From a virus (lineage: Duplodnaviria; Heunggongvirae; Uroviricota; Caudoviricetes): a stretch of DNA of 44,545 nucleotides. The notes beneath the pieces were generated by a model. The model saw only the letters and a program-made list of their open reading frames with translations. It was not told the DNA's origin and did no database searches. Made by a program: the position numbers and the translations under genes. Each line of letters opens with the position of its first letter. Position 1 is the stretch's first letter. Shown piece after piece: positions 28 to 43,375 of the stretch. Location of the stretch: the IMG/VR virus record IMGVR_UViG_2737471829_000005, one strand, 5' to 3'.

Positions 28-696
28 ATGGAGTCTCGACAAATGACTATCTCTGTAGGTATTTTCAACGGAAAAGGCGGCGTAACCAAATCAACAATTG
101 CCCGTGCTTTAGCAGTTGCTTATGCAAAGGCTGGCTGGAATGTATGCCTGATCGATATGGATGTGCTTAACGGAACGGTAACGCGTTGGGTACAACGCAG
201 AATGGCCAACAATATCGAACCAGCAATCGCGGCGCAGCCGTGCGGCACACCATCACAAGTCCAGAAAATCATCGAATCAGAAATATACGACCTGGTTATC
301 GTCGATGGCGGTGCCTACGCATCTGAATCAGTACCGAAGCTCTCTGAATTTCTGGATATGGTTATTTTGCCAACCAGATTCTCTACCGATGACCTGGAAA
401 CCACCGTTAACACAGCTCACGGCATCGTTAAAAAGGGTGTACCAATCAAGAAAATTTGCATGGTGTTTTCCGGCGCGGCTGAAAACGAAGCTGACTATAT
501 TGAAGCCCAAGAGTACCTGGCTAATACGCCATACTTTGTTGTCGATAAGTACATTCCCCACAAGCCAGCTCTGAGCAAAGCTCAGGATAAGGGCTTAAGC
601 CTCATTGAGTGCTCATACGTTGCGCCACGCAAAAAGGCAGACGACGTTATTCAGGGGATTATCAACCAGCTTGAGGCTCTGACTACTGCCGCGTAA
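28..696 (+). CDS. ParA/ParF-like partition ATPase; true start may be the Met at 43
   Basis: 222-aa ORF with deviant Walker A GIFNGKGGVTKST; followed by a small RHH-like ORF; GGAG lies 9 nt before the Met at 43. Confidence 0.8.
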   Translation: MESRQMTISVGIFNGKGGVTKSTIARALAVAYAKAGWNVCLIDMDVLNGTVTRWVQRRMANNIEPAIAAQPCGTPSQVQKIIESEIYDLVIVDGGAYASESVPKLSEFLDMVILPTRFSTDDLETTVNTAHGIVKKGVPIKKICMVFSGAAENEADYIEAQEYLANTPYFVVDKYIPHKPALSKAQDKGLSLIECSYVAPRKKADDVIQGIINQLEALTTAA

Positions 697-728
697 TATA
701 TAATTATAGTTTTATAGATTTATATAAG
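696..728 (+). promoter_or_regulatory. AT-rich repeat block between the ParA-like and ParG-like genes; candidate operator or centromere-like site
   Basis: atatataattatag ... tatagatttatataag, two motif-like half sites. Confidence 0.3.
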
Positions 729-1751: not shown

Positions 1752-1779
1752 AACCGTCCTCAAAAGGACGGTTTTTTTG
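1752..1779. terminator. Intrinsic terminator; strong on plus, overlaps the stop of the minus-strand HTH gene
   Basis: aaccgtcc-tcaaaa-ggacggtt followed by T7. Confidence 0.6.
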
Positions 1780-2332
1780 TTTCTCCCCCTTCCTTCCCAA
1801 ATGATTCAAATGTTAATGAGAGTGAATCATTTGATATGTTCGATTTAGCGCCGTTATCGACCCAATTTCTGTATGCTTCATCACAACAGTACCTTACAGC
1901 AGTTGGAGTAACAGGGATGCCGCCCCCAAATGAGAATCCCATTGAGCTAATGCTAACTCTTTCGAATGGCCTATTTCTCAATGCTTCAAACCCCTTGCTA
2001 TTAAAGTAACGCAGCATCAGAGGTAAAAGGTTATCCTCGTCCTGACTGATTGTTCCAGGGAAAAAGTAGTAACCATAACGGTTAAATTCGGGAATAAGAT
2101 TTTCTACCAATGACATGAAATTCACTGGAGTAATATTAAGGGCTGTGAAAGCACCAAAAAGGGCGTCAACTGTTAATACAGACTGCCCGTTCTCTATCTT
2201 TGTCCATGCGTTTGGTGTTTTTCCAGCAGCTTGAGCCAGCACTCCTTGATGCACACCTCTTTCTAGCCTAAGTTCTTTTATGATCATTAGGTGAATTGTT
2301 GAAAAACATGAGTTTTTTGACTGTTCAATCAT
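1760..2332 (-). CDS. HTH (XRE-like) transcriptional regulator with C-terminal domain, divergent from the antirepressor operon; candidate immunity repressor
   Basis: 190-aa ORF; N-terminal helix-turn-helix-like segment LAQAAGKTPNAWTKIENGQS. Confidence 0.55.
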   Translation of the reverse strand: MIEQSKNSCFSTIHLMIIKELRLERGVHQGVLAQAAGKTPNAWTKIENGQSVLTVDALFGAFTALNITPVNFMSLVENLIPEFNRYGYYFFPGTISQDEDNLLPLMLRYFNSKGFEALRNRPFERVSISSMGFSFGGGIPVTPTAVRYCCDEAYRNWVDNGAKSNISNDSLSLTFESFGKEGGETKKPSF

Positions 2333-2778: not shown

Positions 2779-2970
2779 ATGACAAACCTACCCCATGACT
2801 ATTACGTCAACCTCGTAAAGATCCTTCTCAAGAAAGCCTCATACGCCGATAAATTCCGCCTGGCTGAAATCATCGAGCGCGAAGCTATGCGCATCGCCAG
2901 CAACGATAACGCTGTTTCTGACGCAAAAATCTCCCTCGTAACCAAAGTAGTTATGGGAGGTGCAAAATGA
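2779..2970 (+). CDS. Small protein (63 aa) overlapping the antirepressor start; Icd-like position
   Basis: ATG at 2779 with GGAG 8 nt upstream; stop overlaps the antirepressor ATG (ATGA). Confidence 0.45.
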   Translation: MTNLPHDYYVNLVKILLKKASYADKFRLAEIIEREAMRIASNDNAVSDAKISLVTKVVMGGAK

Positions 2971-4112
2971 AAACGCTTCCGACCGTTAACACCCTACAGC
3001 CTATCCTGCATAACCAAATCCCTGTCATTACTACCGAGTTACTAGCACAGCTTTACGGCACTGAGCCGGTGCGTATTCGCCAGAATCATCATGAGAACAA
3101 AGCACGTTTCGTTGAAGGGAAACACTTTTTCAAAGTTGTTGGTAATGACCTTAAAGAATTGCGGGTAGCTTTAAACTACTCTCAAAATCCAGTTTCACCT
3201 AAAGTCCGCTCCCTCATCCTCTGGACAGAACGCGGGGCTGCACGTCACGCTAAAATGCTCGAAACCGATCAGGCGTGGGATGTATTCGAACGGCTGGAAG
3301 ACTGCTACTTCAACCAGAACGCGCAAACGGCCGCGACCGTAACCGTCTCACCAAACAATGCTCGTGAGGTTGTCGATACGCTCAACGCTAAACCAATGTA
3401 TTACATTAAGGTGTGCAACAACGAGCCACTCACAACCTCAGCCGATGTTGCCCAGGCATTCAGCACCACAAACAATTCCATCGTTATGGCCATCGATGCG
3501 TTACGCATTCCTCGCACAGCTGCGGCGCGTCACTTCTTTAAAGAGCAACGACCGCTGGAAGGAAGCGACCGCGAAATAACAATCTATCGCATGACAAAAG
3601 ACGGATTTACCTTGCTCATGGAGAGCATCGACGGTCCAAGCGTGAAAGATATCAAGCTGGCCTACATTGAAGCCTTTAACGCTATCAGCAGCGTGTTAAA
3701 AACACAGTACGAGCGTGATCTGGCTAAACGACTATACCAGGAAAAAACGATTATCCGCGCGGCAACAGAGCATAATCGGCTATTAACGGAACCGAACTAC
3801 AGGAAGGAACTAATCAAGGAGTTTGACAAGGCAACAGGGAAAACCAAAGCGGCGCTAAGTCTGCCAGCAATGACTCAGGAAAATGTGATATCAGCCTTAC
3901 TTCTTGATCTGCTCAGAAACGCCAGAGCACTTATCAGCTTTGACGAAAACCTGAATCCTCAGCTCAAGCTACTACCACCGACAGGCAAAGTAGTCGACCA
4001 AGCAGATCACAACAGCATACTCAGCGTACTGGATGCAAACCTGCCAGCCAGGACACTACAGGATCTGATAAAAACATGTGCTGATAAGCTGGCACAGAAA
4101 AGCAGACCATAA
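2967..4112 (+). CDS. Phage antirepressor (Ant-like; ORF6N/AntA-type N-terminal domain)
   Basis: 381-aa ORF; N-terminal region typical of antirepressor/Rha-type proteins; terminator directly downstream. Confidence 0.65.
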   Translation: MKTLPTVNTLQPILHNQIPVITTELLAQLYGTEPVRIRQNHHENKARFVEGKHFFKVVGNDLKELRVALNYSQNPVSPKVRSLILWTERGAARHAKMLETDQAWDVFERLEDCYFNQNAQTAATVTVSPNNAREVVDTLNAKPMYYIKVCNNEPLTTSADVAQAFSTTNNSIVMAIDALRIPRTAAARHFFKEQRPLEGSDREITIYRMTKDGFTLLMESIDGPSVKDIKLAYIEAFNAISSVLKTQYERDLAKRLYQEKTIIRAATEHNRLLTEPNYRKELIKEFDKATGKTKAALSLPAMTQENVISALLLDLLRNARALISFDENLNPQLKLLPPTGKVVDQADHNSILSVLDANLPARTLQDLIKTCADKLAQKSRP

Positions 4113-4149: not shown

Positions 4150-4850
4150 ATCAACACCAGAGACTTTCTGAAAATCCTTTCGAATAGCGTCAGCGTCACG
4201 CGCCAAGCCCATACTCGAACGTGTCGCCATATGACGAAAATGATCAACTGCCGGAAACAAAGAAATAATGGACCCAATAGCTTGCAGCAAACTCGCTTTT
4301 CTACGCATCATAATTCCACCATAACCGATAGCCACCCTTCAGACACAACCCCCCCTCCCCCCATACAGGGTGCCCTTTACCGGAGTTCCGGCCCCTTCTC
4401 AAAAGCATCAAAAAAAGCTCGAGATCGAGTACCGGAACTCATGCCACCAGATAGCTCCACATCGTTTCCAATGCTTCGCCGCCGTGTGCGCCCTGTGGCC
4501 CACAATCATGCCATTGGTCGTCTGATATACCTTCTTCTGCTCATTGAGCACAGGCGAGTTGTCGCACTCCTGCCTTTCTCAGACTCGACTTAGTTTAGAT
4601 CGCTGTTCCTAGCTTGCGTCAGCACACTTTCCCCTTGTACGCATACCCGCGCGCCACTCCGCCCAAAAACACCGAACCCAACGAAGTGGCAAAGACAACG
4701 ACGCGAGCGTGAGTCTGAAACAGGCACCAGTAAAAAAGGGGTTGCAGGCGCAAAAAGATTTGATTATCTTTAGACGCAAGAAAGCCGCCCCAATCAAGAG
4801 GTGTCTTTTTAAATCCAGCCTACCAAGCAAGATTTAAATTTCAGACTGAA

Positions 4851-4880
4851 AACCGCCCGGCAAGGCGGTTTTTGTCTTTC
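4851..4880. terminator. Intrinsic terminator, likely bidirectional
   Basis: aaccgcc-cggcaa-ggcggtt with T-run on plus and A-run upstream. Confidence 0.6.
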
Positions 4881-4921: not shown

Positions 4922-5194
4922 TCATTTGATCCCTTGTTCCAATTCTGACGACACTTTAACCTTTTCCCATACAAGGGTTTGCAGCCTTAACAGAATCGCA
5001 TCTTTATCAAGGTGTGAAAGATCCTTAACCATATCGTCAAACGACAGAACGCGAATGGCCATCTCAATGACCCTCGGCGGCTCCCCCTTCTCATATCGCT
5101 TATATGTAGCCAACGATATCCCAAATTCTTCGGCGGCTCGCTCCTGCGTCCAGTTCATCCCACGACGCCATAATTTCAATTCATAACCCGTCAT
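4922..5194 (-). CDS. HTH (XRE-family) DNA-binding protein
   Basis: ATG at 5194 with AGGAGG RBS; HTH motif WTQERAAEEFGISLATYKRYEKG. Confidence 0.65.
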   Translation of the reverse strand: MTGYELKLWRRGMNWTQERAAEEFGISLATYKRYEKGEPPRVIEMAIRVLSFDDMVKDLSHLDKDAILLRLQTLVWEKVKVSSELEQGIK

Positions 5195-5222
5195 AGCATC
5201 CTCCTCGCACAATATTAACACT

Positions 5223-5249
5223 CGCAAAGTGTCAAAATGACACTTTGCG
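5223..5249. promoter_or_regulatory. Perfect 12-bp inverted repeat cgcaaagtgtca-aaa-tgacactttgcg between the 126-aa gene and the HTH gene; operator or attenuator hairpin
   Basis: Palindrome read directly; sits in a 60-bp intergenic gap. Confidence 0.5.
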
Positions 5250-5257
5250 CATTGTGT

Positions 5258-5638
5258 TTACTTAACGAGGAATAAAAATGGTTTATTGTTCGGCGGTGTA
5301 ATCGGGGCTGGCTCGCTTTTGCTCATGCGATCAGTGTACCAGGCCAGCTCCTTGTCAAAGTAAGCCTGATTAAAATAGGCCATGAATGTAGTTTCAAATC
5401 CATAACGACCGCTAATACGCAGCATCTGATTGCCGTTCTCTGTTTCCAGATATACCTGGGCACGTTCCTGATTCTCCTTCAGCCAGGTTAAAGCCTCATC
5501 GCACGAGGACACACGGTACTCATCATCGTAGCCGTCATCGATGCGGCTTGAAGAAGAACGGCAAATCACGCCAACAGAACCAGCCAGGATAGTTTGAATT
5601 TTAAGGAAAGCATTTTTGCGGATTTTAATCATGCTCAT
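5258..5638 (-). CDS. Hypothetical protein (126 aa), first gene behind conserved leader cassette A
   Basis: ORF begins directly at the conserved leader RBS. Confidence 0.5.
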   Translation of the reverse strand: MSMIKIRKNAFLKIQTILAGSVGVICRSSSSRIDDGYDDEYRVSSCDEALTWLKENQERAQVYLETENGNQMLRISGRYGFETTFMAYFNQAYFDKELAWYTDRMSKSEPAPITPPNNKPFLFLVK

Positions 5639-5755
5639 CGGGTTATCTCCGGTTTAACCAGGGCGGGTATCGCTCGGTTTCGGTTATAACCTTAGGAAAT
5701 TTTTTCCCACCTGTAAAGCATTTTTTATATAAATATATAATTATATAATTCTATG
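5639..5755 (-). repeat. Conserved promoter-leader cassette, copy A
   Basis: More than 90% identical to 37715-37823 and 44444-44545; holds the AT-rich motif, a TTTACA hexamer, GGGAAAAAATTTCC, and a leader ending at GGAG and ATG. Confidence 0.8.
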
Positions 5756-6692: not shown

Positions 6693-6968
6693 CTATTTTT
6701 GTGACTTTACTCCTGGCATATGGACTTCCCAGCGACGAATCCCCATAGCTGCGCAAAAATCAGCCACATAATTCAATCCCGCCCATTCGCGGATACCACC
6801 ACGGGCTTTTTCAATGAAAACGGCAATCCCTTTTTTATTGAGAGCAAAAAGCCGCCAGCTTTTTGTCACTTCGTCCTGGGTAGCCACAACACAAGTGAAA
6901 GCTCCCATGCGATACAGGTCCAAGAACTCTTTGCGTGTTTTGCGTACAAGTTCCATAACAAACCTCAT
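6693..6968 (-). CDS. Hypothetical protein; start ambiguous (6968 or 6956)
   Basis: ORF coupled to the upstream gene. Confidence 0.4.
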   Translation of the reverse strand: MRFVMELVRKTRKEFLDLYRMGAFTCVVATQDEVTKSWRLFALNKKGIAVFIEKARGGIREWAGLNYVADFCAAMGIRRWEVHMPGVKSQK

Positions 6969-6979: not shown

Positions 6980-7267
6980 TCAAACATCTGTTTTGTTATC
7001 AATGAAGATTAACCCTAACCCAGCGAAGTAACACAGCAGCGCCCAGGCTGCATACGGAATGCTGGATCTGGATGTGGACTCCTTTAACATCTGCCAATTG
7101 CGAACATTGCGACTATCTTTTAAGCCAAGTTTTTTGGCCAACTGCGAGCCGCTCATTCCGGTCAGGCCAATGACTGCCCGAACTTCTCCACATGTAGGAG
7201 ACTCCCATTCATCCGCTTTTTTTAAACAAGCCGGATTCAACATTTTTAAAACAGTATCTTTATCCAT
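6980..7267 (-). CDS. Small HTH-like protein with C-terminal hydrophobic segment (candidate membrane-anchored DNA-binding protein)
   Basis: HTH-like LTGMSGSQLAKKLGL and C-terminal IPYAAWALLCYFAGLGLIF; ATG at 7267 with GGAGA RBS. Confidence 0.4.
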   Translation of the reverse strand: MDKDTVLKMLNPACLKKADEWESPTCGEVRAVIGLTGMSGSQLAKKLGLKDSRNVRNWQMLKESTSRSSIPYAAWALLCYFAGLGLIFIDNKTDV

Positions 7268-7513
7268 AACCATCTCCATTTATTATATCTACGATGGTAG
7301 GAAATCTTTTCCTATGTGGCAATAGAAATTTACTACATTGCGTATAAGACAACTTTTCTATGTCTAATAGGAAATGATGTTTCTTACGTTTTATCGCGTT
7401 CTGATGGCTACTGTGTGCGTATTTATCGACGTTTATTGATAAGGCTCCCCCTTCCTCCTGCAAAGCCCGGCCGTAGGCCTTATTTCGTCCTTATATAAAT
7501 TGATTTTGTATAG

Positions 7514-11753: not shown

Positions 11754-14108
11754 TTACACCTGTGCGACGTTATACCATGTGCCATTGATGTATTTTTGTA
11801 TTGGTCTGAAGATGGCTTCATCATCGCCATCTACTTCACCAATGATTCTTAATCCGGTAATTGCGTGTCCGGCTTTTTCATAACGACCACCACGCGCCAT
11901 CAATTGAACAACACGCGTACCCAGGCGAACATCTTTCACATAACGGGAATCAAAGTTACCGTAATCCGAGGGGTTAACACGCCCTGTAATATTTATGGTT
12001 TTATTACTTTGAATGCTGCCGGAGACAAAGCGCATAACATGGACGTTATTAGCATAAACGTCCAGATTACCGTCGCCATTTTGTTTAAAGCCCGTGTCAT
12101 TATCACCCAAAACAATCGAGTTACCGCCAAGAGCACTGGATGTTCCGATGCCCAGTGCACCATTCAATTGACCTCCAGATAATGACAACGCCCCAACATC
12201 AGCAGCAGTCGGTTTAATGTGCGAACTGTAAATTACATATACAGTTCCATCTGTCAGGCCTTTTGGTTTATTCGCTGTATAAGTTGGTGATGTATGAATC
12301 GTTACGCTGGCGTTACTGGTATAATCCCACTGAATATTAACACCTGTGGCGTAATTACCTATTTCAACATAAACATCATAGGTATCACCGGATGTATTCA
12401 CCCATGCAAAATTAGTAAATCCAACCGATGTCCGTCGCCATAACGCACCAGTAAGACCTTTTGGATTTCCATTTCCCGCACGAAGAACAAGTTCAGATAT
12501 ACCAGCCTGCATAGGGGAGTTAACATTATATCCAGCACCACCAATCAGGCTTATGTAAACCACGGAACTGGCCTGGGGCATGGTTACAGTTGCCAGCCTG
12601 AACCATCCTGTACCACCACTAAAAGACATGGTTGTTGAATTTGTTGCTCCAATATTGCGCAGGAATAATCTTTTATCAGGAATATCTGCGCCATTCTGGT
12701 TTTTCTGCAACGCACCAGAAGCCTGATTTACCGTTTCCTGTAAACCGAGGTATTCGATAACGGCGGCAACGGTCGATTTCGCAAGAATATCCCGCCCGAC
12801 TTTTGTCAGAGTTGCCAGGCTGGCGACATCATTCCCCGTAAAATACGGAAACCTGTCTGCCGCAGTAGCAAGCCCGGCCAGCGCCGTCAGGGTGGCATCT
12901 TTCGGTTGCTTACCCGCAAGCGCGTTAGTCATGGTGGTCGCAAAATTCGGGTCGTTGCCCAACGCCGCAGCCAGCTCGTTCAGCGTATTTAGTGCGTCAG
13001 GCGACGAGTCCACGAGGGCAGCGATCGCAGCCATAACATAAGCCGTGCTTGCGATCTGAGTATTGTTAGTACCTTTTGGCGCAGTTGGTGTTGTTGGTGT
13101 TCCGGTCAGCGCAGGACTGTTTAAGGGCGCTTTCTTGTTCGTTTCATCCATTACCGCCTTAACAGCTTTTGGTGTCGCAGCCAGCGTTTCAGACGTGCTG
13201 TTAGTGGCACTACTGAGCTGAGTTATTCCCCTTACAGTCAGTGAAGCTACAGGCACATTTGTTATCTGCTCCCACGAATGCGTGTGATTGGACGGAGCCT
13301 TTCCGGCCGCAAGATCATACGCTGCCTTAACAGCCTTTGGTGTTGCTGCTAGCGTTTCAGACGTGCTGTTGGTGGCACTACTGAGCTGAACAATCCCTTT
13401 TCGCGCTGTGGTAGCGTCCTGTGCGGTGTATTTAGCGTTAGCAAGGTCATATGCTGCCTTAACAGCCTTAGGCGTCGCAGCAAGCGTTTCAGACGCGCTA
13501 TTGGTGGCGCTGCTAAGTTGAACAAAGCCTTTTGAGGTTAAAGTTGCATCAGGATGATTACGTGATTGCTCATGTTTCACAATGGCTTGCTTAAGCCGCT
13601 TTGCTGAAACAGCAAGGGAATCATCTGTACCTGCCTCAATTTCTTGTTCATTAGCAAATCTTGCCACCCCAACAACAGTTTCGGTCGCGGGAGGATTAAT
13701 AAACTCAATATCACCAAATGTAATATTTTTAGTATCAAGAGTCTTAATTGCTATATCACTTGATATTAAAGCGATAGTAGATGATGCTTTATTTATTATT
13801 GCTTGTTCTTGTGAGTATACAGCAAACAACGCCCCCTTATTCGTATACAATCCTATTGTATGGACAACATACTCATCTTTACTATCATCCTTCGCTGTTA
13901 CATGAATTGTATCAGGGGAAACAACTTTGCCACCTATTGTGGTAAGTCGTTTTATTTCGTTTGTTATATTTGTTTGTGAGGTTGACGTGACATAATATCT
14001 ACTACCTAAACCAACAGAAACAATCTCAACTTTATTTGTTCCTGTTTTGTTGGCATTAACCAGCTCCTGACGCCCGGCGTCAGTCATCGTAAATAATAAT
14101 TTACTCAC
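11754..14108 (-). CDS. Tail fibre protein (S); constant N-terminal part outside, variable C-terminal part inside the invertible segment
   Basis: 784 aa; repeat-rich; crossover repeat lies inside the ORF at 12679-12751. Confidence 0.85.
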   Translation of the reverse strand: MSKLLFTMTDAGRQELVNANKTGTNKVEIVSVGLGSRYYVTSTSQTNITNEIKRLTTIGGKVVSPDTIHVTAKDDSKDEYVVHTIGLYTNKGALFAVYSQEQAIINKASSTIALISSDIAIKTLDTKNITFGDIEFINPPATETVVGVARFANEQEIEAGTDDSLAVSAKRLKQAIVKHEQSRNHPDATLTSKGFVQLSSATNSASETLAATPKAVKAAYDLANAKYTAQDATTARKGIVQLSSATNSTSETLAATPKAVKAAYDLAAGKAPSNHTHSWEQITNVPVASLTVRGITQLSSATNSTSETLAATPKAVKAVMDETNKKAPLNSPALTGTPTTPTAPKGTNNTQIASTAYVMAAIAALVDSSPDALNTLNELAAALGNDPNFATTMTNALAGKQPKDATLTALAGLATAADRFPYFTGNDVASLATLTKVGRDILAKSTVAAVIEYLGLQETVNQASGALQKNQNGADIPDKRLFLRNIGATNSTTMSFSGGTGWFRLATVTMPQASSVVYISLIGGAGYNVNSPMQAGISELVLRAGNGNPKGLTGALWRRTSVGFTNFAWVNTSGDTYDVYVEIGNYATGVNIQWDYTSNASVTIHTSPTYTANKPKGLTDGTVYVIYSSHIKPTAADVGALSLSGGQLNGALGIGTSSALGGNSIVLGDNDTGFKQNGDGNLDVYANNVHVMRFVSGSIQSNKTINITGRVNPSDYGNFDSRYVKDVRLGTRVVQLMARGGRYEKAGHAITGLRIIGEVDGDDEAIFRPIQKYINGTWYNVAQV
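12679..12751. repeat. Right inverted repeat of the invertible segment, inside the tail-fibre ORF
   Basis: Reverse complement identical to 9697-9769. Confidence 0.85.
13156..13527 (-). repeat. Three tandem coding repeats (about 70 nt conserved cores) inside the tail-fibre gene
   Basis: Encode the repeated peptide SSATNS.SETLAATPKAVKA. Confidence 0.7.
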
Positions 14109-18447: not shown

Positions 18448-21232
18448 AACTTAATCTCCGTTGTTGGAACATATGAGCACTCAATTTCTTCTCAAAATCA
18501 GAATATCCCGCATCTAATGCTCTTTTAGCTGCCGCCTCAGTTTCCTTTGGTGAACCAGCCGGAAGATTGATTACAGGTGAATAGGTTATTCCACCAGTCA
18601 CAGCGTTAACGTTCTGGCGAGGTCCAGAAGTCCCGGCGGCAGATATCCCGTGAGGTGATAAATTTGATTGCCCGAACTTGGTTGCTATTGCATTCTGTAA
18701 GCTGTTATTCCTGCTAACACCTGATGCCAGAGTAGTCATTATTGCACCACCTGACTTTGTTAGCTGTGAGAATGGACCTTTTTTCGCGTCAGAGAACGGT
18801 AAATACTCACGTACAGAAGAAAAAACGCCTTTCACTTCATTAATTAAAGCATTTGCTTTTGATTTTATCCCAATGATTAACGTCTCAATTATTTTTGCAC
18901 CTGACTCACTCCAGTTTATTCCAGATAAATAAGCCGTTACAGATTGGAATGCTCTTATAAAGAGTCCAACTGGCGAAAAACGCATAAAAACAGATACCAG
19001 TGTATCTATGATTTTCTTTCCTGTTTCGCTCCAGTTAATGCCAGAAAGGTAATTTGTTGTAAGTTTAAATGCTTTAATTAAGAACGGAAGCGGAGACATC
19101 CATTTAAAAGCACTAATTAATGTACTGTAAATTCTTACTCCTGCCGAACTCCAGTTTATGTTGGAAAGATAATCCCATGCTTTACCAAATATAGATATAA
19201 TCCATCCATTGAGATCAAAGTTTAAGATAAAGTTTTTTATAGTCTCAAACGATTTAACTGTATATTCCTTAACAGAAGGCCAAACTCTGACAGCATAATC
19301 TCTGATCTTATCCCAGTTCTGATAGAGCAATATTCCTGCGGCAACCAGCGCAGATATAGCCATCTGAATCCACCCGAAGGGTGTTAGCTTTGTCGCTACA
19401 GATAAAGCCAGCATAGCTACCCTACACGCTATAACCACACTTTTCATGGTTAGAAACGCACCTGCCGCCATCACTATCTGAGACACAAAATTGGGGTTGT
19501 TAGCTACAAATTCACTAATTTTTGTAATCAGCGGAACCAAAACACTAAGCGCGGCATTCAAAGCAGGTTGCAAGGCCTGACCAAAACTTAATGATGCATT
19601 GCTAGCCTGAATACGTAATTGTTTCAATCGCTCCGCATTATCTTTCGTTATGTTGGCAAAATCGCGGTCAATAACAGCACTTCCAGCTCCAAGAGATGTT
19701 GCTTTGATTCTCTGGTATTCCTTCCAGTTTTGAATCATCGGACGAACAAAGTTCTGAACCTGCATATCGCCAAATAGTTCACCAAGTAACTTCTGATCTC
19801 CGTTCTTAGTCATTTTCATGACAGAATGCATTGCAGCTTCGAATGGATTCTTCCCTTTTTTCTGCGCTGTTGTGACAATTTTATATAAATCTACACCGAA
19901 ATTTTTCTTTGCTTTTTTTAGTGTTTCAGGGGAAAGTATTTTTGCCAAAAAGTTGTTCATATTATTAGCAGCCTCATCCGAAGTTGCAGCACCTTTGCGA
20001 GCTATCTGCAAAGCTGCCCCCATCGTCGCGGCGGCTTCTTTACCTCCCATTTTTAATGCCTGGAACTGAGCACCAAGCACAGGAAGATTTTTGGCCATAT
20101 CTTTAAATTCAAAGTTTCCCTCTTTCCCTGCCTGAACCAGAATCCCCATTGCAGACTTCATTTGAGATGGATCAATCTTCAATGAGTCACTTAATGTAAA
20201 TGATGCTTTCGAGACATCGAGGATATCAGAGCCAGTAGCTGTAGCTGTTCGCCCAATAGTTAGTAGATTCGCCTGAGCCTCTTTATAATCCTGCCCAGCA
20301 GCGACGAGAAAACCCTGAGCGGCCTGAATATCAGATGCAAACTGGTTGGTGGCCGTTCCGGTAACAAGCATCGCCTGCCCCATCGCCTGAACTTCTTCCG
20401 GCTTCATATCTGCCGTAAGACCAATCATTTTGTTTTCACGATTGAAATTTGCTGCATTGTTAGCAGCAGCAAATGCACCAGCCGCTACAGCACCAGTTTG
20501 TAATCCTGACCTTACAAGTTGACTCTTTGCCTCACCAAGATGCTCTCGCTTCAATTCACGCTGCCTTTCCAACGCGCGGTTTAACTCCTCCTGAGCACGT
20601 TTTACTGCAAGAACATTTTTCCGTGCTTCAGCCAACGCATTTTTATAACTGTTAATTTTATCAATACGTTGTTTTTCTAATGCCCGGTTAAGTTCCTCCT
20701 GCTGTTTTTTCACTTGCTGAACATTTGCTCTGGCTAAAGCCAAAGCCGTTCTGTAGCGGTTAACCTGCTCAACGCTACGGGCCTGAGCCTCACGATTACG
20801 ATCAATGCTTGCTTTAAGCTCTTTCTCTCTTGAGGCCAAAGCTCTGGCAGATGTATCAGCTCCCTGATACGCAGACTTTAAAGCGGCCAGTTCTTCACGC
20901 TGAGAACGTAGTGATGCTCGTAAATTTGATGAATGTGTTTTTGCCTTCTCAAAGTCACGAAGCATCGCTCTGGTTGGATTGGCCGTGTTTTTTATTTGCT
21001 TCTGTAACTCTTCAACGCGAGCGGCAGCTTTATGATATTCGAGGGCAGTCTGTCCAACCTTTACTTTTACAGATTGTAGCTTTTGAATTTCCCCATGTTC
21101 TTTCGTTAATCCAGCAAGCTCGGCATTTAATTTAGCAACAGCCTGATTAGCTGTAGTAAAACTTTTGGGGAGAGAGGCGGCAACTTTGCCGCCAATTTCA
21201 AAAGCCAGCTTAAAGTTCTTATTGCTGGCCAT
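18440..21232 (-). CDS. Tail tape measure protein
   Basis: 930 aa; coiled-coil-rich N-terminal half and hydrophobic segments; follows the frameshifted chaperone pair. Confidence 0.85.
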   Translation of the reverse strand: MASNKNFKLAFEIGGKVAASLPKSFTTANQAVAKLNAELAGLTKEHGEIQKLQSVKVKVGQTALEYHKAAARVEELQKQIKNTANPTRAMLRDFEKAKTHSSNLRASLRSQREELAALKSAYQGADTSARALASREKELKASIDRNREAQARSVEQVNRYRTALALARANVQQVKKQQEELNRALEKQRIDKINSYKNALAEARKNVLAVKRAQEELNRALERQRELKREHLGEAKSQLVRSGLQTGAVAAGAFAAANNAANFNRENKMIGLTADMKPEEVQAMGQAMLVTGTATNQFASDIQAAQGFLVAAGQDYKEAQANLLTIGRTATATGSDILDVSKASFTLSDSLKIDPSQMKSAMGILVQAGKEGNFEFKDMAKNLPVLGAQFQALKMGGKEAAATMGAALQIARKGAATSDEAANNMNNFLAKILSPETLKKAKKNFGVDLYKIVTTAQKKGKNPFEAAMHSVMKMTKNGDQKLLGELFGDMQVQNFVRPMIQNWKEYQRIKATSLGAGSAVIDRDFANITKDNAERLKQLRIQASNASLSFGQALQPALNAALSVLVPLITKISEFVANNPNFVSQIVMAAGAFLTMKSVVIACRVAMLALSVATKLTPFGWIQMAISALVAAGILLYQNWDKIRDYAVRVWPSVKEYTVKSFETIKNFILNFDLNGWIISIFGKAWDYLSNINWSSAGVRIYSTLISAFKWMSPLPFLIKAFKLTTNYLSGINWSETGKKIIDTLVSVFMRFSPVGLFIRAFQSVTAYLSGINWSESGAKIIETLIIGIKSKANALINEVKGVFSSVREYLPFSDAKKGPFSQLTKSGGAIMTTLASGVSRNNSLQNAIATKFGQSNLSPHGISAAGTSGPRQNVNAVTGGITYSPVINLPAGSPKETEAAAKRALDAGYSDFEKKLSAHMFQQRRLSFG

Positions 21233-26645: not shown

Positions 26646-27734
26646 TTAATTTTTATCGCGGTTTTTAAATACTGACCCAATAACATTTTTTACTGCTTCA
26701 GCCTGTTTGTTACCGTTGTTTTCTGGTTGATTAACATCAACTGAATCATTCACCTCACTTGCGTCTTCTTGCCGTTGATTAAGAAAGTTTTTGTTACGCG
26801 CTCGCTCTGCATTCATAATTTCCAAAGCAAGTTCAGCCGCAGAAACTCCTGTTTTGAATTTTGCATTCTTAACCAGGTCGTCATGACCAGGAATCACGCT
26901 ATTCTCGATTGTTTCAATGCGCTCGCGTTCTGATTTAACGCCCTCGTCTTTACCAGCATTAAAAACCTGATTGTATAATTCTGGATATTTATTTTTTAAT
27001 TCATCAAGAGTCACAATATCGTCCTCATTTTGTTCATTTGATTCAGTAGATAACTCATTTTTATTTTGCGGCAACTTTGCGAGTGAATCAGGTAATTTTG
27101 AAAACCTTGATGCTTCAAAAGTTATTCCATTAAGAGAAAGCATCCCTTCTTTTATAGAAGCGGATAAGCGTATTGGTTTTTCAACTTCGTCAGCAAATCC
27201 AAGCTCTACAGCCTCTTCTGCATTTAGCCATGTTTCCTGATCCATTAGTTCAATTAATTTATCCTCAGAAAGCCCTGTTTTCTCCTTATATGCAGATAAA
27301 ATACTATTGCGTATCTTATCCATCATCTCAGCAATATCACGCAATTCATCCGCATCGCCAGCAGCAAATGTCCACGGATTATGGATCATCATCATAGCAT
27401 TAGATGGGATAATAATTTTATCACCCGCCATTGCAATAATAGTTGCAGCCGATGCAGCAATCCCGTCGATATAAACCGTAATATTCGCCTTATGACGCTT
27501 TAATGATGAAAGAATAGCTTGAGCAGTAAAAACAGAACCACCATAACTATTAATTTTTACGTTGATAGTATTTGATGAAATATCATTTAATTTATTAACT
27601 ATGTCAGAAGAAGAAACCTCATCAAATTCACCAATATACCCGTAAATTAAAAGTTCAGCCGGAGAGTCATCTTCACCCGTGCTATTTTTTATTTCCCACC
27701 AATTAGGCATCATCAGTCTCCATATTTTGTTCAT
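26646..27734 (-). CDS. Head maturation protease / scaffold (S49/ClpP-like, lambda gpC-like)
   Basis: 362 aa; ClpP/SppA-like core GGSVFTAQAI...IDGIAASAATIIAMAGD. Confidence 0.8.
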   Translation of the reverse strand: MNKIWRLMMPNWWEIKNSTGEDDSPAELLIYGYIGEFDEVSSSDIVNKLNDISSNTINVKINSYGGSVFTAQAILSSLKRHKANITVYIDGIAASAATIIAMAGDKIIIPSNAMMMIHNPWTFAAGDADELRDIAEMMDKIRNSILSAYKEKTGLSEDKLIELMDQETWLNAEEAVELGFADEVEKPIRLSASIKEGMLSLNGITFEASRFSKLPDSLAKLPQNKNELSTESNEQNEDDIVTLDELKNKYPELYNQVFNAGKDEGVKSERERIETIENSVIPGHDDLVKNAKFKTGVSAAELALEIMNAERARNKNFLNQRQEDASEVNDSVDVNQPENNGNKQAEAVKNVIGSVFKNRDKN

Positions 27735-31386: not shown

Positions 31387-31947
31387 TTATTCTTCCTGCT
31401 TAATAAATCGGGATTCCTGGAGCGCCTGGAGCGCAAAATTAATCTCGTCTTCAATAATGCGTTCGATCTCCCTAGCTGTTTTGCCTTCACAACGGGGAGC
31501 TGCTCTTGGAGCAATACTAAATAAGCGGCTACGCAATTCATTAGCTGCCAGAAATGCATCATCCCTGACCGCATCTTTAGCGATGAGAGAGCCTTCCTTT
31601 TCTTCAAATTCAAGGCGTTTCAGCTTTGCCTGATAAATTTTTTCTGCGGTCTTAGCCTTGTTGAATTGCACCGCAACACCGGAAGTACCACCAGCTAATC
31701 CGGCATCATCAGCGGGTAACTCTGGTTGTTCCGAAGATATCCCATGCCCTCTTTTTCCGTTTTCAGCAGATACCTCACGACCAACCTGTCGGCTCGCTTC
31801 ATAAGCCGCACTTGCTTTATCAAAATCCAGCTTGCCGCTTTTCAGCACTGGAATGCGACCGGAACGACAGAGCTTCGTAACCATTGCCGGAGAAATACCT
31901 TTCCGGCGGGCAAACTCTGACTTACTGACGATGGCCATTACTTGCAA
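31387..31947 (-). CDS. Terminase small subunit (Nu1-like, N-terminal HTH)
   Basis: 186 aa; N-terminal HTH SKSEFARRKGISPAMVTKL; immediately upstream of TerL. Confidence 0.75.
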   Translation of the reverse strand: MQVMAIVSKSEFARRKGISPAMVTKLCRSGRIPVLKSGKLDFDKASAAYEASRQVGREVSAENGKRGHGISSEQPELPADDAGLAGGTSGVAVQFNKAKTAEKIYQAKLKRLEFEEKEGSLIAKDAVRDDAFLAANELRSRLFSIAPRAAPRCEGKTAREIERIIEDEINFALQALQESRFIKQEE

Positions 31948-32528
31948 CCATTAGCAAGATACTGAACAAATCCCTCATGCGTTTCATGCGCGTCGTGGTA
32001 CTGACGATAAACATCCAGCAACAATGCAATTTCCATATCCGTCGCGGGAATACGTTCTTTATCAATAGCCAGGTACTTAATTTGAACAACAGGGGAAGAA
32101 TTATCGTCTTCTTCCTGCGGCTGTTCATCGCTTAACATTTCGTCAAGCTCTGCATCATTAAACCCAAGCAGATCAATATCAAAATCATCATCCATTAACT
32201 CTTTGACTTCTTCGGCCAGAAGCTGCATATCCCAGCCAGCATTTAAGGCCAGCTTGTTATCTGCAATCCTGTAAGCCTTCTTCTGTTTTTCAGAAAGGTT
32301 ACTCAACCGAATCGCCGGAACTTTATCCATTTCAAGAATTTCGGCTGCTGCAAGCCGACCATGCCCCGCAATCAGTTCATTCTTTTCATCGATCAGCACA
32401 GGATTAGTGAAACCGAACTCACGGATACTGTTCACCAACTGTTCAACCTGCTCATCTGAATGAGTCCGTGAATTTTTGGCGTATCTGAGCAGCTTACCGA
32501 CTGGTAAATATTCGATTTTTAGAGCCAT
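31938..32528 (-). CDS. ParB/Srx-like N-terminal domain protein (paralogue of 35195-35818)
   Basis: 196 aa; GHGR motif AGHGRLAAA; full-length paralogy with the third ParB-like protein. Confidence 0.75.
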   Translation of the reverse strand: MALKIEYLPVGKLLRYAKNSRTHSDEQVEQLVNSIREFGFTNPVLIDEKNELIAGHGRLAAAEILEMDKVPAIRLSNLSEKQKKAYRIADNKLALNAGWDMQLLAEEVKELMDDDFDIDLLGFNDAELDEMLSDEQPQEEDDNSSPVVQIKYLAIDKERIPATDMEIALLLDVYRQYHDAHETHEGFVQYLANGCK

Positions 32529-33821: not shown

Positions 33822-35201
33822 CTACTTAATCAACGGCCGGAAAGCCGCCAGCACATCATCAGATCGTCCGATTGTTGAACCACCAGGCAACGGCAACTCA
33901 AACTCAAAACGAACAGCTTTCTCCAGACTCGCCCAACTAAGGGAATCATCGTTAATGACGTGCAAATACCAGCTCTTACAGTTGAATATTGACCGCTTAA
34001 TCCTGAAACCATGTACACAACACAACTGCTTCACTTCATCATCAGAGTGAAACTTCTGGTAAAACCAGTGCCCCTTCCGGTACAACGCGGTAAAACCGTT
34101 ATGATCAATAAAATAAAGCCGGCTTTTGGAACTCGCCGCTTGTGTTTGCTTCAGGACTGTTTCCAGCTCTCCACGGCTACGACCAGAAAAGAATATTGAC
34201 CCACCAGCTTTACACAGGCCTTTCAGAACCGTCAGAACGGACCATTCAGCCTCAACACTATCGACCGAGTTCAAAACGCTATCGCAAATCACGTAGTCGT
34301 AACGCCCTCGCGTTTTTAAGTCGTCCACCAGCGTATCAATCATCCGGTTTGTTGCGGTCCTATCCAGAGTGTTTCCAGCGCCCTTACGGCGGAAAAGCTC
34401 GAGATCATGCAGGTTATATCCCTTTGCCCTGAGCATTCGCGCGTAGTCTCCCTGCCCCGAACCAAAATCAATTCCTCTTGGAGTCTTGGCAATGATCGGG
34501 AGGATCAACGACTCATACAGGTTTGATTTCAGGCTGCCACCATTACGCAACCGCATAAGCTGCGCATACGTCTGGATGTATGTTGTTTTCTCCAGATGAG
34601 AATACTCAAATACACCATAAGTTTTATTCAGATAACTTTGGTATTTTTCCTTCTCAACATCAGGGATCACAAACACCGTTAGCGGTGTGCGCGTCATCTT
34701 CGCTGCTAATGCATACTGAGCACAGTGAATAACCTCGCCAGACTGAGTAGCAACACAACCACCCCACGGACCATACTTGATAACCAGTTCCGCTATGTTC
34801 TTTCGAACATATGCCATTTTCGCGCGCATATTGCCTGAGATCTGGCTTGCCGATACCTGAACAAAACCATGCTTATCTTCCAGACCGGACACCCTGCAAC
34901 GCTCATCTCCGCTATCAAAATCCGTTCCGTTATGCAGTTGGTTAAACCGTACTTCGTCGTATACCGTCGTTTCACAGGGCAACACATACACCGCAGCACG
35001 CGTTATTCCCAACTTACGTAGCGCCTTCGTCCTTTGGTGTCCCGCCACCAGCAAATCGCCGCGCACTATCAATGGCTTCACAAGCCCTAGCTCCCTGACG
35101 CTTTCCGCCAGCCTCGCAAGATCATCCTCACCGATAAAACGCGGGTTATATTCCGCACCGCGTAGGTGCGTTATGTCGTAATTGAGGTGAAGCATCAGCA
35201 C
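33822..35201 (-). CDS. Fusion protein: N-terminal ParB/Srx-like domain plus C-terminal class I SAM-dependent methyltransferase
   Basis: 459 aa; N-terminal GHQRTKA; C-terminal IDFGSGQG and YDYVICDSVL Rossmann motifs; no DPPY-type amino-methyltransferase motif seen. Confidence 0.7.
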   Translation of the reverse strand: MLMLHLNYDITHLRGAEYNPRFIGEDDLARLAESVRELGLVKPLIVRGDLLVAGHQRTKALRKLGITRAAVYVLPCETTVYDEVRFNQLHNGTDFDSGDERCRVSGLEDKHGFVQVSASQISGNMRAKMAYVRKNIAELVIKYGPWGGCVATQSGEVIHCAQYALAAKMTRTPLTVFVIPDVEKEKYQSYLNKTYGVFEYSHLEKTTYIQTYAQLMRLRNGGSLKSNLYESLILPIIAKTPRGIDFGSGQGDYARMLRAKGYNLHDLELFRRKGAGNTLDRTATNRMIDTLVDDLKTRGRYDYVICDSVLNSVDSVEAEWSVLTVLKGLCKAGGSIFFSGRSRGELETVLKQTQAASSKSRLYFIDHNGFTALYRKGHWFYQKFHSDDEVKQLCCVHGFRIKRSIFNCKSWYLHVINDDSLSWASLEKAVRFEFELPLPGGSTIGRSDDVLAAFRPLIK

Positions 35202-35818
35202 ACCTCCCCAGCCAGCAATGCGGATACAAATCCGATATAGCTGCCATTATCATCAACATAACGAGACACCGCGCAGTCAAAACGATCCGCTTCCTCATCC
35301 GTTGCCGGGATTTTATGACCTCCAAATGACAGGTACTGAACTTTTACGCCTGATTTGGCCTCATCCTTCTCAAATGGGATATCCATACCCTCTGTGTCAT
35401 CGTAGACCGCCGCACTCAATAAGTTATCCAGTTCGCGCTGAGTAAAACCAATTGAGTCCAGAGCAAAATCATCGGCCGCAAGATCTGCAAGCTCCGCGCT
35501 TAACAACTCTTCATCCCAACCAGCATTCAGCGGAATACGGTTGTCGGCCAGACGATATGCCTTCTTCTGATTCTCCGTTAGCCCTTCCAGAACAATGCAG
35601 GGAACATCATCCATCCCCAACTGAGTGGCCGCAGCAATTCGACCATGACCAGCAATTACAACGTTGTTCTCGTCTATCAGGATCGGATTAGTCCATCCGT
35701 ACTCCTGTATGCTGGCAACAATCTGATCTACCTGCTCCACGGAGTGTGTGCGAGCGTTCTTTTCATAACCAATCAACACAGAAAGTGGTAAAGAAACCAC
35801 ATTAAGATGTTTTGTCAT
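35195..35818 (-). CDS. ParB/Srx-like N-terminal domain protein (paralogue of 31938-32528)
   Basis: 207 aa; AGHGRIAAA; conserved C-terminal IPATDEE block shared with its paralogue. Confidence 0.75.
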   Translation of the reverse strand: MTKHLNVVSLPLSVLIGYEKNARTHSVEQVDQIVASIQEYGWTNPILIDENNVVIAGHGRIAAATQLGMDDVPCIVLEGLTENQKKAYRLADNRIPLNAGWDEELLSAELADLAADDFALDSIGFTQRELDNLLSAAVYDDTEGMDIPFEKDEAKSGVKVQYLSFGGHKIPATDEEADRFDCAVSRYVDDNGSYIGFVSALLAGEVC

Positions 35819-37443: not shown

Positions 37444-37469
37444 AAAAAAGCCCCGGCAATTGCCGAGGC
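37444..37469 (-). terminator. Intrinsic terminator inside operon B, between its first and second genes
   Basis: Minus-sense gcctcggc-aauu-gccggggc (8-bp stem) followed by U6. Confidence 0.6.
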
Positions 37470-37492
37470 TCGTTGTTCGTTATCGTTACGGT

Positions 37493-37714
37493 TTAATGCT
37501 CGCGTCGTCCGGCGACAACTTCGGATTTGTATTTCAGGTCGCCCAGCAAGAATTGCAGCTTAAGCATCTTTGCCGCCGTGTAGTTCCCTGATTCCACAAC
37601 CTCTTTCATGAGGTCATAAACGGCCGCTACATCATCAGCCAGGAACTCTTTGCGTTGCTGATCAGTCGCACGTTTGAAGGAAATACGCATTACTTTACGG
37701 TCTTGTTCTTTCAT
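37493..37714 (-). CDS. Hypothetical small protein (73 aa), first gene behind leader cassette B
   Basis: ATG directly at the conserved leader RBS. Confidence 0.55.
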   Translation of the reverse strand: MKEQDRKVMRISFKRATDQQRKEFLADDVAAVYDLMKEVVESGNYTAAKMLKLQFLLGDLKYKSEVVAGRREH

Positions 37715-37823
37715 CGGGTTATCTCCGGTTTAACCAGGGCGGGTATCGCTCGGTTTCGGGTATAACATTAGGAAATTTTTTCCCACCTGTAAAGTACTTT
37801 TTATATAAATATATAATTCTATG
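37715..37823 (-). repeat. Conserved promoter-leader cassette, copy B
   Basis: More than 90% identical to copies A and C. Confidence 0.8.
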
Positions 37824-38882: not shown

Positions 38883-38929
38883 ATGGTTGATGCGTGCGCC
38901 CATGAGAAAAGCGCATAGAATGTTGTAAC

Positions 38930-38965
38930 TATATATTTATATAATTATAGAAATATATATTACTT
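38930..38965. promoter_or_regulatory. AT-rich recurrent motif copy; candidate promoter for the tRNA unit
   Basis: ctatatatttatataattatagaaatatatattac. Confidence 0.35.
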
Positions 38966-40580: not shown

Positions 40581-40610
40581 AAAAAAAAGCCCCGCCGAAA
40601 AAGGCAGGGC
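40581..40610 (-). terminator. Intrinsic terminator immediately upstream of the holin RBS (lambda tR'-like placement)
   Basis: Minus-sense gcccugcc-uuuuuc-ggcggggc (one mismatch) followed by U8, then GAGGA RBS and ATG. Confidence 0.55.
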
Positions 40611-40952
40611 TTCATAAAGCAACAAATTACGCGGTAATCGCTTAACGCAGTTTTACTACGTTAAATGAAACACTACACCCAGTTACCACCTAAAACAAGG
40701 TTTTCTCATAAAAAAACCTTCAAATCGTGGTTAATCGATCAATAAAAAAACAATACTCAACTTTTTGCCAAACGAACATCCCGGCCAGGACTTCCATAAT
40801 ATTCGCCGATATGCCACTGCTTAAGTTGAGTAATCTTCTCCAACTTAACTCCCATAGAGTCCAGTTTCTGCCATGTTTTCGGTTGTATGTGCTTCATTAT
40901 CCGCTCTGAATATCTGAATACTGCTCGTAATCGCATGGCTTCTCACTACAGC

Positions 40953-41396
40953 TTATATATGTTCACGACTGGACTTCCAGAATATCCACGCCAGATCAAC
41001 ATTCGGGTCCTGGTAATTCATCCCTTCGTTGGCACGAAGCAATAATGTTTCATGGTCTTTATCACCCGCATGAAACCTGACAAGTGCTTCGAACTTTTCG
41101 CGACCATCATCCGGCACTACCGGCTCTGGTTGGATAGTGACGTTGGCAAAGGCAGCACGCAAACCGGCCTTAATTTCCTCTACTTCATCAGCGCCTAGCG
41201 ATGAATCTGACAATGCGTGATGGAATGCGTAAGCCATGTCGTCGTTTACTGCAACCGGCTCGACTTCCAGCGCTGCCAGAGCAATTCGTGCCAGTTCTTC
41301 CGCTTCTTCTGCTGGCAGTACAACGTTGCTACCAGGTCCGTATGTTTCGCGCCACTGCTTGATTGTCAGCAGTCGCTCTTTGGTAATAGTGGTCAT
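40953..41396 (-). CDS. Hypothetical acidic protein (147 aa)
   Basis: ORF coupled to the upstream Cys-rich ORF. Confidence 0.5.
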   Translation of the reverse strand: MTTITKERLLTIKQWRETYGPGSNVVLPAEEAEELARIALAALEVEPVAVNDDMAYAFHHALSDSSLGADEVEEIKAGLRAAFANVTIQPEPVVPDDGREKFEALVRFHAGDKDHETLLLRANEGMNYQDPNVDLAWIFWKSSREHI

Positions 41397-42649: not shown

Positions 42650-42654
42650 CTTGC

Positions 42655-43319: not shown

Positions 43320-43345
43320 TTATATAAATATATAATTCTATATAC
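43319..43345 (-). promoter_or_regulatory. AT-rich recurrent motif copy upstream of the winged-helix operon
   Basis: tttatataaatatataattctatatac. Confidence 0.4.
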
Positions 43346-43365: not shown

Positions 43366-43375
43366 AGGCTTACTG

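Follow-up and report, generated by a model that had tools for sequence, protein, structure and literature searches.

Three promoter-leader cassettes of a tailed phage-plasmid probably form a KorC regulon homologous to the IncP-1 kil promoters

We wanted to learn why a tailed phage-plasmid keeps nearly the same promoter and untranslated leader in front of three operons whose first genes are unrelated. The DNA analysed here (the window) is the whole 44,545-nucleotide stretch of the virus record IMGVR_UViG_2737471829_000005 (Caudoviricetes). It covers the greater part of a circular element, ~48 kb long, that carries myovirus structural genes together with RepA, ParA, higBA and a DNA invertase. 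An earlier note, made from the letters of this stretch, had described the cassettes. It proposed either selection on the leader itself (shared regulator, riboregulation or antitermination signal) or a portable module for swapping accessory genes. We found that the regulator, operator, promoter and leader are homologous to those of the klcA, kleA and kleC ('kil') promoter-leader modules of IncP-1 plasmids. Judged from sequence, the cassettes are probably a KorC regulon of establishment-type operons.

The three cassettes

We observed three direct copies on the minus strand, at 5635-5754, 37711-37822 and 44440-44545, which were pairwise 96-98% identical over 96 nt; the earlier note had put the identity at over 90%. 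The copy at 44440-44545 loses its upstream part at the window end. The 38-nt leader sequence CCGAAACCGAGCGATACCCGCCCTGGTTAAACCGGAGA occurred exactly three times against an expectation of 0. The element GGGAAAAAATTTCC also had three exact occurrences, and its total count was reached in 0 of 100 shuffles. The TTTACA hexamer, the AT-rich block, the GGAG Shine-Dalgarno (SD) sequence and the ATG all lay where they had been placed before, and the first genes (126 aa, 73 aa and a 355-aa DUF3560 protein) were mutually non-homologous, as the earlier note had said.

The same note had allowed that the copies might be assembly artefacts. The window was 98-99% identical to the Yersinia myophages vB_YpM_39, 41 and 44 and to ~60 complete plasmids of E. 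coli, E. albertii, E. fergusonii, Klebsiella aerogenes and Salmonella, with the 48.5-kb plasmid of E. coli ATCC 25922 among the close relatives. Every related plasmid or phage record contained three cassette-matching places. Since the three copies recur across independent plasmid and phage records, the cassettes are not an assembly artefact.

Each cassette consists of an array of 8-bp AT iterons, a sigma-70 promoter (TTTACA-17-TAAGGT) and a leader of ~45 nt with a hairpin and an SD sequence. The spacer between the -35 and the -10 is occupied by a 17-bp palindrome, TGGGAAA-AAA-TTTCCTA, which in the Salmonella lineage is a perfect one, TAGGAAA-ATA-TTTCCTA. The parts are as follows.

5722-5753, minus strand: cassette 1 iterons, four 8-bp AT units (ATAGAATT ATATAATT ATATATTT ATATAAAA) that abut the -35
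5689-5717, minus strand: cassette 1 core promoter, with -35 TTTACA at 5717-5712, a 17-nt spacer and -10 TAAGGT at 5694-5689
5693-5709, minus strand: cassette 1 KorC-type operator TGGGAAAAAATTTCCTA, a 17-bp dyad overlapping the first two bases of the -10
5656-5679, minus strand: cassette 1 leader hairpin, AACCGAGCG-AUACC-CGCCC(U)GGUU
5636-5650, minus strand: cassette 1 translation start, with SD GGAG at 5650-5647 and the ATG of the 126-aa gene at 5638-5636
37711-37822, minus strand: cassette 2, with three AT iterons, -35 at 37793-37788, operator at 37785-37769, -10 TAATGT at 37770-37765, hairpin at 37755-37732, SD at 37726-37723 and ATG at 37714-37712
44440-44545, minus strand: cassette 3, with -35 at 44521-44516, operator at 44513-44497, -10 at 44498-44493, hairpin at 44483-44460, SD at 44454-44451 and ATG at 44443-44441

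The KorC homologue and its probable operators

The window encodes a 95-aa helix-turn-helix (HTH) protein which pairwise comparison identified as a KorC homologue.

6980-7267, minus strand: korC homologue, 95-aa HTH protein
7294-7322, minus strand: promoter of the korC homologue, TTGCCA-17-TACCAT, with operator TAGGAAAAGATTTCCTA at 7298-7314, directly upstream of the 95-aa open reading frame (ORF)

Against KorC of the IncP-1 plasmid pA1 the protein showed 52.5% identity (E=4e-23), and against that of R702 47% (E=4e-22). In a tblastn search of plasmids with the 95-aa protein 3,928 records matched, and the top matches beyond the family were annotated korC. Among 50,697 phage records, KorC homologues were found only in the three Yersinia phages of this family, together with one weak match. 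An 87-aa ORF (phrog_4595) at 6693-6956 on the minus strand overlaps the korC homologue at its stop, and the two are probably transcribed together.

We searched for the dyad GGAAA-N3-TTTCC and found a fourth site, at 7298-7314, conserved in the E. coli-type and Salmonella-type complete genomes. It holds the same position in the spacer as the operators of the cassettes, and neither the common leader nor AT iterons accompany it. There are four operators per genome, three in cassettes and one at the korC promoter, in the E. coli, Salmonella and Serratia lineages. The operator reads TGGGAAAAAATTTCCTA in the E. coli type, TAGGAAAATATTTCCTA in the Salmonella type and TAGGGCAT(T/A)(T/A)TGCCCTA in pA1 and R702, in an identical position. 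Because its own promoter also holds this operator, the KorC homologue would be autoregulated.

These results favour the shared regulator that the earlier note had listed among its options, with GGGAAAAAATTTCC as the core of a 17-bp KorC-type operator; the connection with a KorC regulon itself had gone unrecognised.

Homology to the IncP-1 kil promoters

We read the IncP-1 operator and promoter sequences directly from the plasmid records (pA1 klcA, kleA). The klcA/kleA/kleC promoters, TTGACA-GGC-TAGGGCATTTTGCCCTA-ATAT...GGCCGGGCATACCGCCCAGGTC..ACCGGAGAA..CCGATG, aligned with the cassette from the -35 to the ATG. The pA1 kleA promoter is AAGTTTAGCTAAAGTGC-TTGACA-GGC-TAGGGCATTTTGCCCTA-ATAT-AGCACTAGAAGGCCGGGCATACCGCCCAGGTCAGATACCGGAGAAAGTCCG-ATGAGC, and the cassette, for comparison, TATATAAAAAGTGC-TTTACA-GG-TAGGAAAATATTTCCTA-TGGT-AGTAACCAGAAACCGAGCGATAGTCGCCCTGGTTAAACCGGAGAAAACCCG-ATGAGC. 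They correspond in the -35 context, the 17-bp TAGG-N9-CCTA dyad, the leader and the SD/ATG context, and the layout of the cassette 1 promoter equals that of the klcA/kleA promoters. In the window cassettes 8-bp AT iterons take the place, adjoining the -35, of the KorA operator GTTTAGCTAAAC.

Homologues found with nhmmer included R702 klcA, kleA and kleC, four copies in Marinobacter pHP-42, E. coli IncP-like plasmids of 41-46 kb, plasmids of Xanthomonas, Xylella, Vibrio and Acidovorax, pYKCS045 and a 29-kb Klebsiella plasmid. We then searched 137 kb with a profile that drew on 22 conjugative-plasmid copies and on no phage-plasmid copies. In the window it recovered cassettes 1 (E=7e-6) and 2 (E=9e-6), in the related complete genome L002 two of the three copies, and in a Serratia plasmid described below all three cassettes (E=4e-11 to 5e-8), with no other match in the 137 kb. 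With a profile of the leader only, the window gave E=0.003-0.008 and the Serratia element, an intermediate, E=4e-7.

Scans of IMG/VR with exact leader patterns returned nothing beyond the two cassette types already known. An IncP-type leader pattern, and likewise a loose pattern for the operator, gave chance matches only, none of them confirmed by nhmmer, and a scan of genome contigs gave 5 single matches in unrelated metagenome-assembled genomes, about the chance expectation for a 19-mer. A search for related loci with the ParB-methyltransferase as query found close relatives only.

The idea of a portable module stood up well when plasmids and phage-plasmids were searched for the cassette in front of varying cargo. 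The homologue precedes klcA, kleA, kleC and various other genes in many plasmid families, two alleles occur behind cassette 2, and a copy cut by IS26 is present in a conjugative plasmid. The latter lies at 3990-4060 of NZ_CP037908, a cfr-carrying conjugative E. coli plasmid, where a relE/HTH pair is followed by an E. coli-type cassette (AT iterons, TTTACA, GGTGGGAAAAA) cut within the operator by the IS26 inverted repeat GGCACTGTTGCAAA.

The Serratia plasmid pJSRIV006_2 (NZ_CP074139) is a 44-kb phage-plasmid of siphovirus type with the same RepA/Par/CI/early-operon backbone as the window. It encodes a KorC homologue (32% identical) with its own TAGGATAAAAAGTCCTA, and has four operators and three cassettes with TAGGAAAAAAAGTCCTA and leader CGGCCGGGCATACCGCCAAGGCCAAACCGGAGATAAACCCGATG. 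The cassettes were 75-91% alike among themselves, with hairpin, SD and spacing kept. We also observed that the plasmid carries lambda-like siphovirus tail genes beside the RepA/KorC/Par/CI/Ref-nuclease backbone found in the myovirus-type element of the window. Because it pairs this backbone with siphovirus tail genes, the plasmid-regulatory backbone is common to different virion modules.

AT iterons and the partition locus

The AT-rich block was present as the earlier note had described it; what had been missed is that it is an array of iterons shared with the partition locus. The features concerned are these.

28-696, plus strand: ParA, small Walker-type, 217-222 aa
740-988, plus strand: ParB/ParG-like 82-aa protein downstream of parA, candidate binder of the AT iterons
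1-25: AT iteron array in the downstream half of the parA promoter region, the rest of which is outside the window
699-722: AT iteron array in the parA-parB spacer
43315-43340: extra AT iteron array between the DUF3560 gene and the next gene
38924-38963: extra AT iteron array upstream of a tRNA gene

In the complete genomes of E. coli type and of Salmonella type alike, arrays of at least three phased units numbered exactly 8, at syntenic loci, where 0.06 would be expected. A pair of them surrounds the parA promoter, a third occupies the spacer between parA and the 82-aa gene, three are in the cassettes and two are elsewhere. The array at 43315-43340 is followed by ...CCTCGACAATG, which resembles the start context of parA, GTCTCGACAAATG (window 30-45).

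The layout is that of a type Ib partition locus, with a small Walker ParA, a small downstream gene and iterons around the promoter and between the genes. In the structure model the N-terminal half of the 82-aa protein is disordered and the rest forms an extended segment and two helices, an arrangement compatible with a ribbon-helix-helix protein of the ParG/omega type; no database match confirmed this fold. The 82-aa partition protein is the obvious candidate, and the most likely one, for binding the iterons. In the otherwise unrelated NZ_CP037908 the par locus has iteron units of the window type, and there ParA is 46% and an ORF like the 82-aa one 39% identical to those of the window.

The repeats upstream of the Serratia cassettes have a different sequence (AAATATTTA-type), which matches the repeats around the parA promoter of that plasmid. 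Since these different repeats match their own parA promoter, the upstream repeats co-vary with the partition locus. In pJSRIV006_2 a Lar restriction-alleviation gene is closely preceded by a further AT array, at 27659-27711.

A generic UP element, or a site for IHF or H-NS, instead of a partition-protein array is unlikely, though it deserves the most attention among the alternatives. The block is AT-rich and immediately upstream of the -35, as a UP element would be, and the 82-aa protein is only a candidate binder. A generic element does not explain why phased 8-bp units recur at 8 loci only, three of them in the par locus, or why the sequence of the unit changes in Serratia along with the ParA/ParB-like pair. 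Neither does it explain why the units are retained in an unrelated plasmid beside a par pair only 39-46% identical.

The leader and its hairpin

Between the Salmonella and E. coli lineages the core promoter and leader were 88-91% identical, whereas the flanks were 58-76% identical. We compared the hairpin in an alignment of 26 sequences. It has an outer GGCC/GGUC helix, an inner GGGC/GCCC helix, a 5-nt loop and one bulge, and it starts 1-9 nt from the predicted 5' end. Pairing held in 95% of cells of the alignment, compared with at most 51% when the partners were slid. Four of the eight pairs had changes on both sides, a level reached by 1-3 of 500 shuffles, and RNAalifold independently predicted an identical helix.

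Among the compensatory changes, the closing pair went from G-C to A-U in the phage-plasmids, a Vibrio plasmid likewise had A-U for G-C, and an E. coli IncP-like plasmid had GAGU/ACUC for GGGC/GCCC; one pair appeared as G-U, A-U or G-C. A second helix of 3 bp, pairing CGG of the SD region with CCG before the AUG, is invariant and hence gives no covariation signal. No Rfam family matched the leader at gathering score, the best match being to an unrelated family at E 0.4.

The covariation-aware structure prediction that the earlier note had suggested therefore favours a real helix, by compensatory changes as well as by RNAalifold, and the selection on the leader that it had proposed fits a sequence better conserved than its flanks, recognisable out to IncP-1 and with its hairpin kept paired by compensatory changes. 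The role of the hairpin is likeliest to be stabilisation of the mRNA or control of translation start, on general grounds only.

Could the copies be alike without any function of the leader? If gene conversion acts among the 110-bp repeats, selection on promoter and operator would suffice. The three copies within a lineage do carry common lineage-specific substitutions (at the operator centre, and GATACCCGCCC vs GATAGTCGCCC), which is concerted evolution; identity over ~100 bp would let RecA mediate conversion, and a Ref nuclease gene is present on the element. Even so we regard this explanation as quite improbable. Elements from IncP-1, Xanthomonas, Xylella, Vibrio, Marinobacter and Serratia all have a recognisable leader, with its hairpin kept by compensatory changes, and the Serratia copies are not homogenised and yet retain hairpin, SD and spacing. 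That these diverged copies keep all three points to selection besides any gene conversion.

Other explanations and points of weakness

Several HTH proteins are encoded by the element, and assignment of the binder follows from sequence, so that another regulator might bind the palindrome in place of the KorC homologue. The candidates are the CI-like HTH/S24 repressor, the 190-aa HTH protein (1760-2332) and the HTH protein of cassette 1. This is highly improbable, as in length, in its TAGG...CCTA ends and in promoter position the dyad agrees with the IncP-1 KorC operators, and it precedes the korC homologue itself in three lineages. Moreover, no dyad was found in the intergenic region beside the CI-like repressor gene (4 sites in the whole genome L002).

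Two further explanations have very little to recommend them. In the first, the cassettes would be late promoters under a Q-like antiterminator, with the dyad as Q-binding element and the leader as pause or loading site. The position of the dyad does resemble that of the lambda Q-binding element, the early-transcribed AGCGAT resembles a -10-like pause element, and behind cassette 2 come a short gene and then a strong terminator, ahead of packaging genes. We detected no Q-family domain among ~30 proteins scanned (not every ORF of the element), AGCGAT is absent as a conserved motif in the homologues, and the module is homologous to IncP-1 promoters of a plain repressible type. For the antitermination signal suggested earlier we found no evidence.

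In the second, equally remote, the leader would be the target of a trans-acting antisense RNA such as the C4-type RNA of the element, which encodes homologues of C4 antisense RNA and isrK at 2543-2729; the duplex of C4 with the leader (-33.7 kcal/mol) equalled the mean of shuffled leaders (-32.8 +/- 4.3), and the best non-self site genome-wide had z of about -4 among 6406 windows, as expected for such an extreme. Riboregulation in its antisense form was thus left without a complementary partner in these comparisons.

All of these alternatives, including the UP element and gene conversion, fit the data less well than a KorC regulon. Several observations weigh against the KorC regulon or its parts. 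The KorC assignment rests on pairwise homology, because KorC is represented by a model in neither Pfam nor NCBIfam, where even R702 KorC was without a match. The -10 hexamers TAAGGT and TAATGT match the consensus weakly. Window cassette 3 and the third copy of L002 were not reported by the conjugative-only profile. Cassettes 2 and 3 have no upstream terminator, so their cargo may be expressed by read-through from upstream operons as well. Single-sequence folding of the leader was unremarkable (z = -1.3 to -2.3). The covariation comes from few events, namely the phage-plasmid clade, one E. coli IncP-like plasmid and one Vibrio plasmid; since independent events are few, it is moderate evidence and not proof.

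Cargo operons and neighbouring features

The operons behind the cassettes are arranged as follows.

4922-5638, minus strand: cassette 1 cargo, a 126-aa protein (5258-5638, phrog_8090) and an HTH_3 protein (4922-5227)
37448-37714, minus strand: cassette 2 cargo, a 73-aa gene (37493-37714) followed directly by a strong terminator at 37471-37448
40586-44443, minus strand: cassette 3 cargo, the DUF3560 protein (43376-44443) and about seven small genes, with a terminator at 40613-40586

The cassette 1 operon is flanked by a strong terminator upstream (5787-5765) and a terminator-like hairpin at its end (~4847-4874). A perfect 27-bp palindrome, CGCAAAGTGTCA-AAA-TGACACTTTGCG, lies at 5223-5249 between the 126-aa and HTH genes, and may be an operator of the cassette 1 HTH protein or an RNA hairpin.

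Cassette 2 begins at the stop codon of an MT-A70 methyltransferase gene, with no intervening terminator. Its gene is allelic in the family, with 73 aa in 4 loci and 89-97 aa in 15 loci (e.g. L002 40577-40846). The alleles are alike over the first eight codons only, and the breakpoint just past codon 8 suggests an exchange of cargo anchored on the cassette.

The 355-aa first gene of cassette 3 matched Pfam DUF3560 (E=8e-31). Comparison of the cargo proteins with PHROGs and Pfam assigned no function, and BLASTP against pA1 KlcA, KlcB, KleA and KleE gave a best E no better than 0.3. The structural and lysis genes showed no obvious control by cassette promoters.

Between the terminase genes and cassette 2 there are three genes with ParB/Srx N-terminal domains, one of them a methyltransferase fusion (31938-32528, 33822-35201 and 35195-35818, minus strand). 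Direct repeats were seen in structural genes, three of 93 nt in the tail-fibre gene and three of 45 nt, spaced by 120 nt, in the tape-measure gene (stretches 13141-13533 and 18891-19175).

Near the par locus, isrK (68 bits) and C4 antisense RNA (70.8 bits) were matched at Rfam gathering level at 2543-2729 on the plus strand. Directly downstream are a 75-aa ORF (2743-2970) and a 381-aa ORF6N/Rha antirepressor-like ORF (2967-4112), both on the plus strand. The region has the layout of a P1/P7-type immI (c4-icd-ant), and the 190-aa HTH gene is nearby (1760-2332, minus strand). Between that gene and the par locus a full-length homologue of ryfA RNA, a type I toxin-associated RNA family, was found at 1211-1509 on the minus strand (134.6 bits).

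Proposed mechanism

We infer that the KorC homologue (6980-7267) has as its operator the 17-bp dyad T(G/A)GGAAA-N3-TTTCCTA, which occupies the spacer and reaches into the -10, and that the homologue bound there would exclude RNA polymerase. The AT iterons, in the place of the KorA operator, would be bound by the ParG-like protein (740-988), probably as co-repressor, so that dual repression would be linked to the partition operon. When the element enters a naive cell without repressors, the three operons (126 aa and HTH protein; 73 aa; DUF3560 and small genes) would fire briefly from strong promoters and then be silenced in the plasmid-prophage state. The conserved hairpin near the 5' end, followed by the SD, would act post-transcriptionally, by stabilising the mRNA or by making translation start efficient.

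More tentatively, and as a possibility we consider doubtful, the hairpin and SD of the 5' untranslated region (GGCCGGGC-loop-GCCC(A)GGUC..ACCGGAGA..CCGAUG and its phage-plasmid form) could be an undescribed cis-acting RNA which travels with KorC promoters among IncP-1-like plasmids and phage-plasmids alike and sets the strength or duration of the establishment burst, with the partition protein replacing KorA as co-repressor in the phage-plasmids.

KorC regulons are already known in IncP-1 and IncU plasmids, and the cassette is their homologue at the sequence level. Three things appear to be new: the tailed phage-plasmid host, the replacement of the KorA operator by par-linked iterons, and the conserved, unannotated leader hairpin. 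We found no paper on KorC in phage-plasmids, on replacement by par-linked iterons or on a kil-leader hairpin, in a search which left most older subscription papers on RK2 outside.

In summary, these results suggest a regulator and a logic for three cargo operons of a common phage-plasmid family of E. coli and Salmonella, and a regulatory module of broad-host-range conjugative plasmids is also present in a tailed phage. By analogy with klcA, the cargo genes are candidates for establishment or anti-defence functions. The comparison also revealed that the classical kil promoters of IncP-1 have a conserved hairpin in the leader, of which no description was found in Rfam or the searched literature. 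On the more tentative reading above, a virus would have a plasmid-style circuit of zygotic induction tied to its segregation machinery.

Comparison with known systems

In phage-plasmid P1 the dispersed C1 operators place several scattered operons of the plasmid-prophage under one repressor. The C1 and KorC proteins and their operators are not known to be related, and the P1 operons, unlike those described here, are not known to have a common leader.

Some centromere-binding proteins double as global repressors, as do omega of pSM19035, ParG of TP228 and KorB of RK2. They likewise use short iterated sites at the par promoter and at promoters of other operons. In the present element, by contrast, the iterons are AT-only with an 8-bp period, and the 82-aa protein is a candidate binder.

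Repeats of a repressor site before diverse leading-region genes are also known from the CUP (conserved upstream) elements of IncN plasmids, to which ArdK binds, as PMC6289460 summarises them, citing Delver and Belogurov 1997; the likeness to the cassette is drawn here from function. KorC homologues serve as global or autoregulatory repressors in IncU RA3 and in pOXA-48, RA3 being covered by the account that PMC12365149 gives, citing Ludwiczak et al. 2013. For pOXA-48 (IncL) a KorC site is predicted between the -35 and -10 of the korC promoter itself, and korC is required for maintenance (PMC12365149). One KorC site was found there, whereas the present element has four, three of them with a common leader.

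The closest system is that of IncP-1 (RK2/RP4, R702, pA1). In RP4, KorC together with KorA represses klcA, kleA and kleC, and klcA is among the most tightly repressed genes, being induced ~120-220-fold in fresh transconjugants (PMC7314908). The two systems differ in host, a myovirus-type phage-plasmid here and a conjugative plasmid there, and in the inner operator bases (GGAAA here, GGGCA in IncP-1). They differ also in the upstream element, which is GTTTAGCTAAAC in IncP-1 and the 8-bp AT iterons here. The korC homologue has its own promoter, whereas in IncP-1 korC is the last gene of the klcA operon, and the cargo is unrelated to klcA or the kle genes. They are alike in the homologous regulator (47-52%), in the 17-bp TAGG-N9-CCTA dyad of the spacer that overlaps the -10, and in having several near-identical promoter-leader copies per replicon. 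Homology extends to the leader hairpin, the SD context ACCGGAGA and CCGATG, and in both a second operator, common to the promoter of a partition or central-control operon, abuts the -35 (for IncP-1, PMC7314908).

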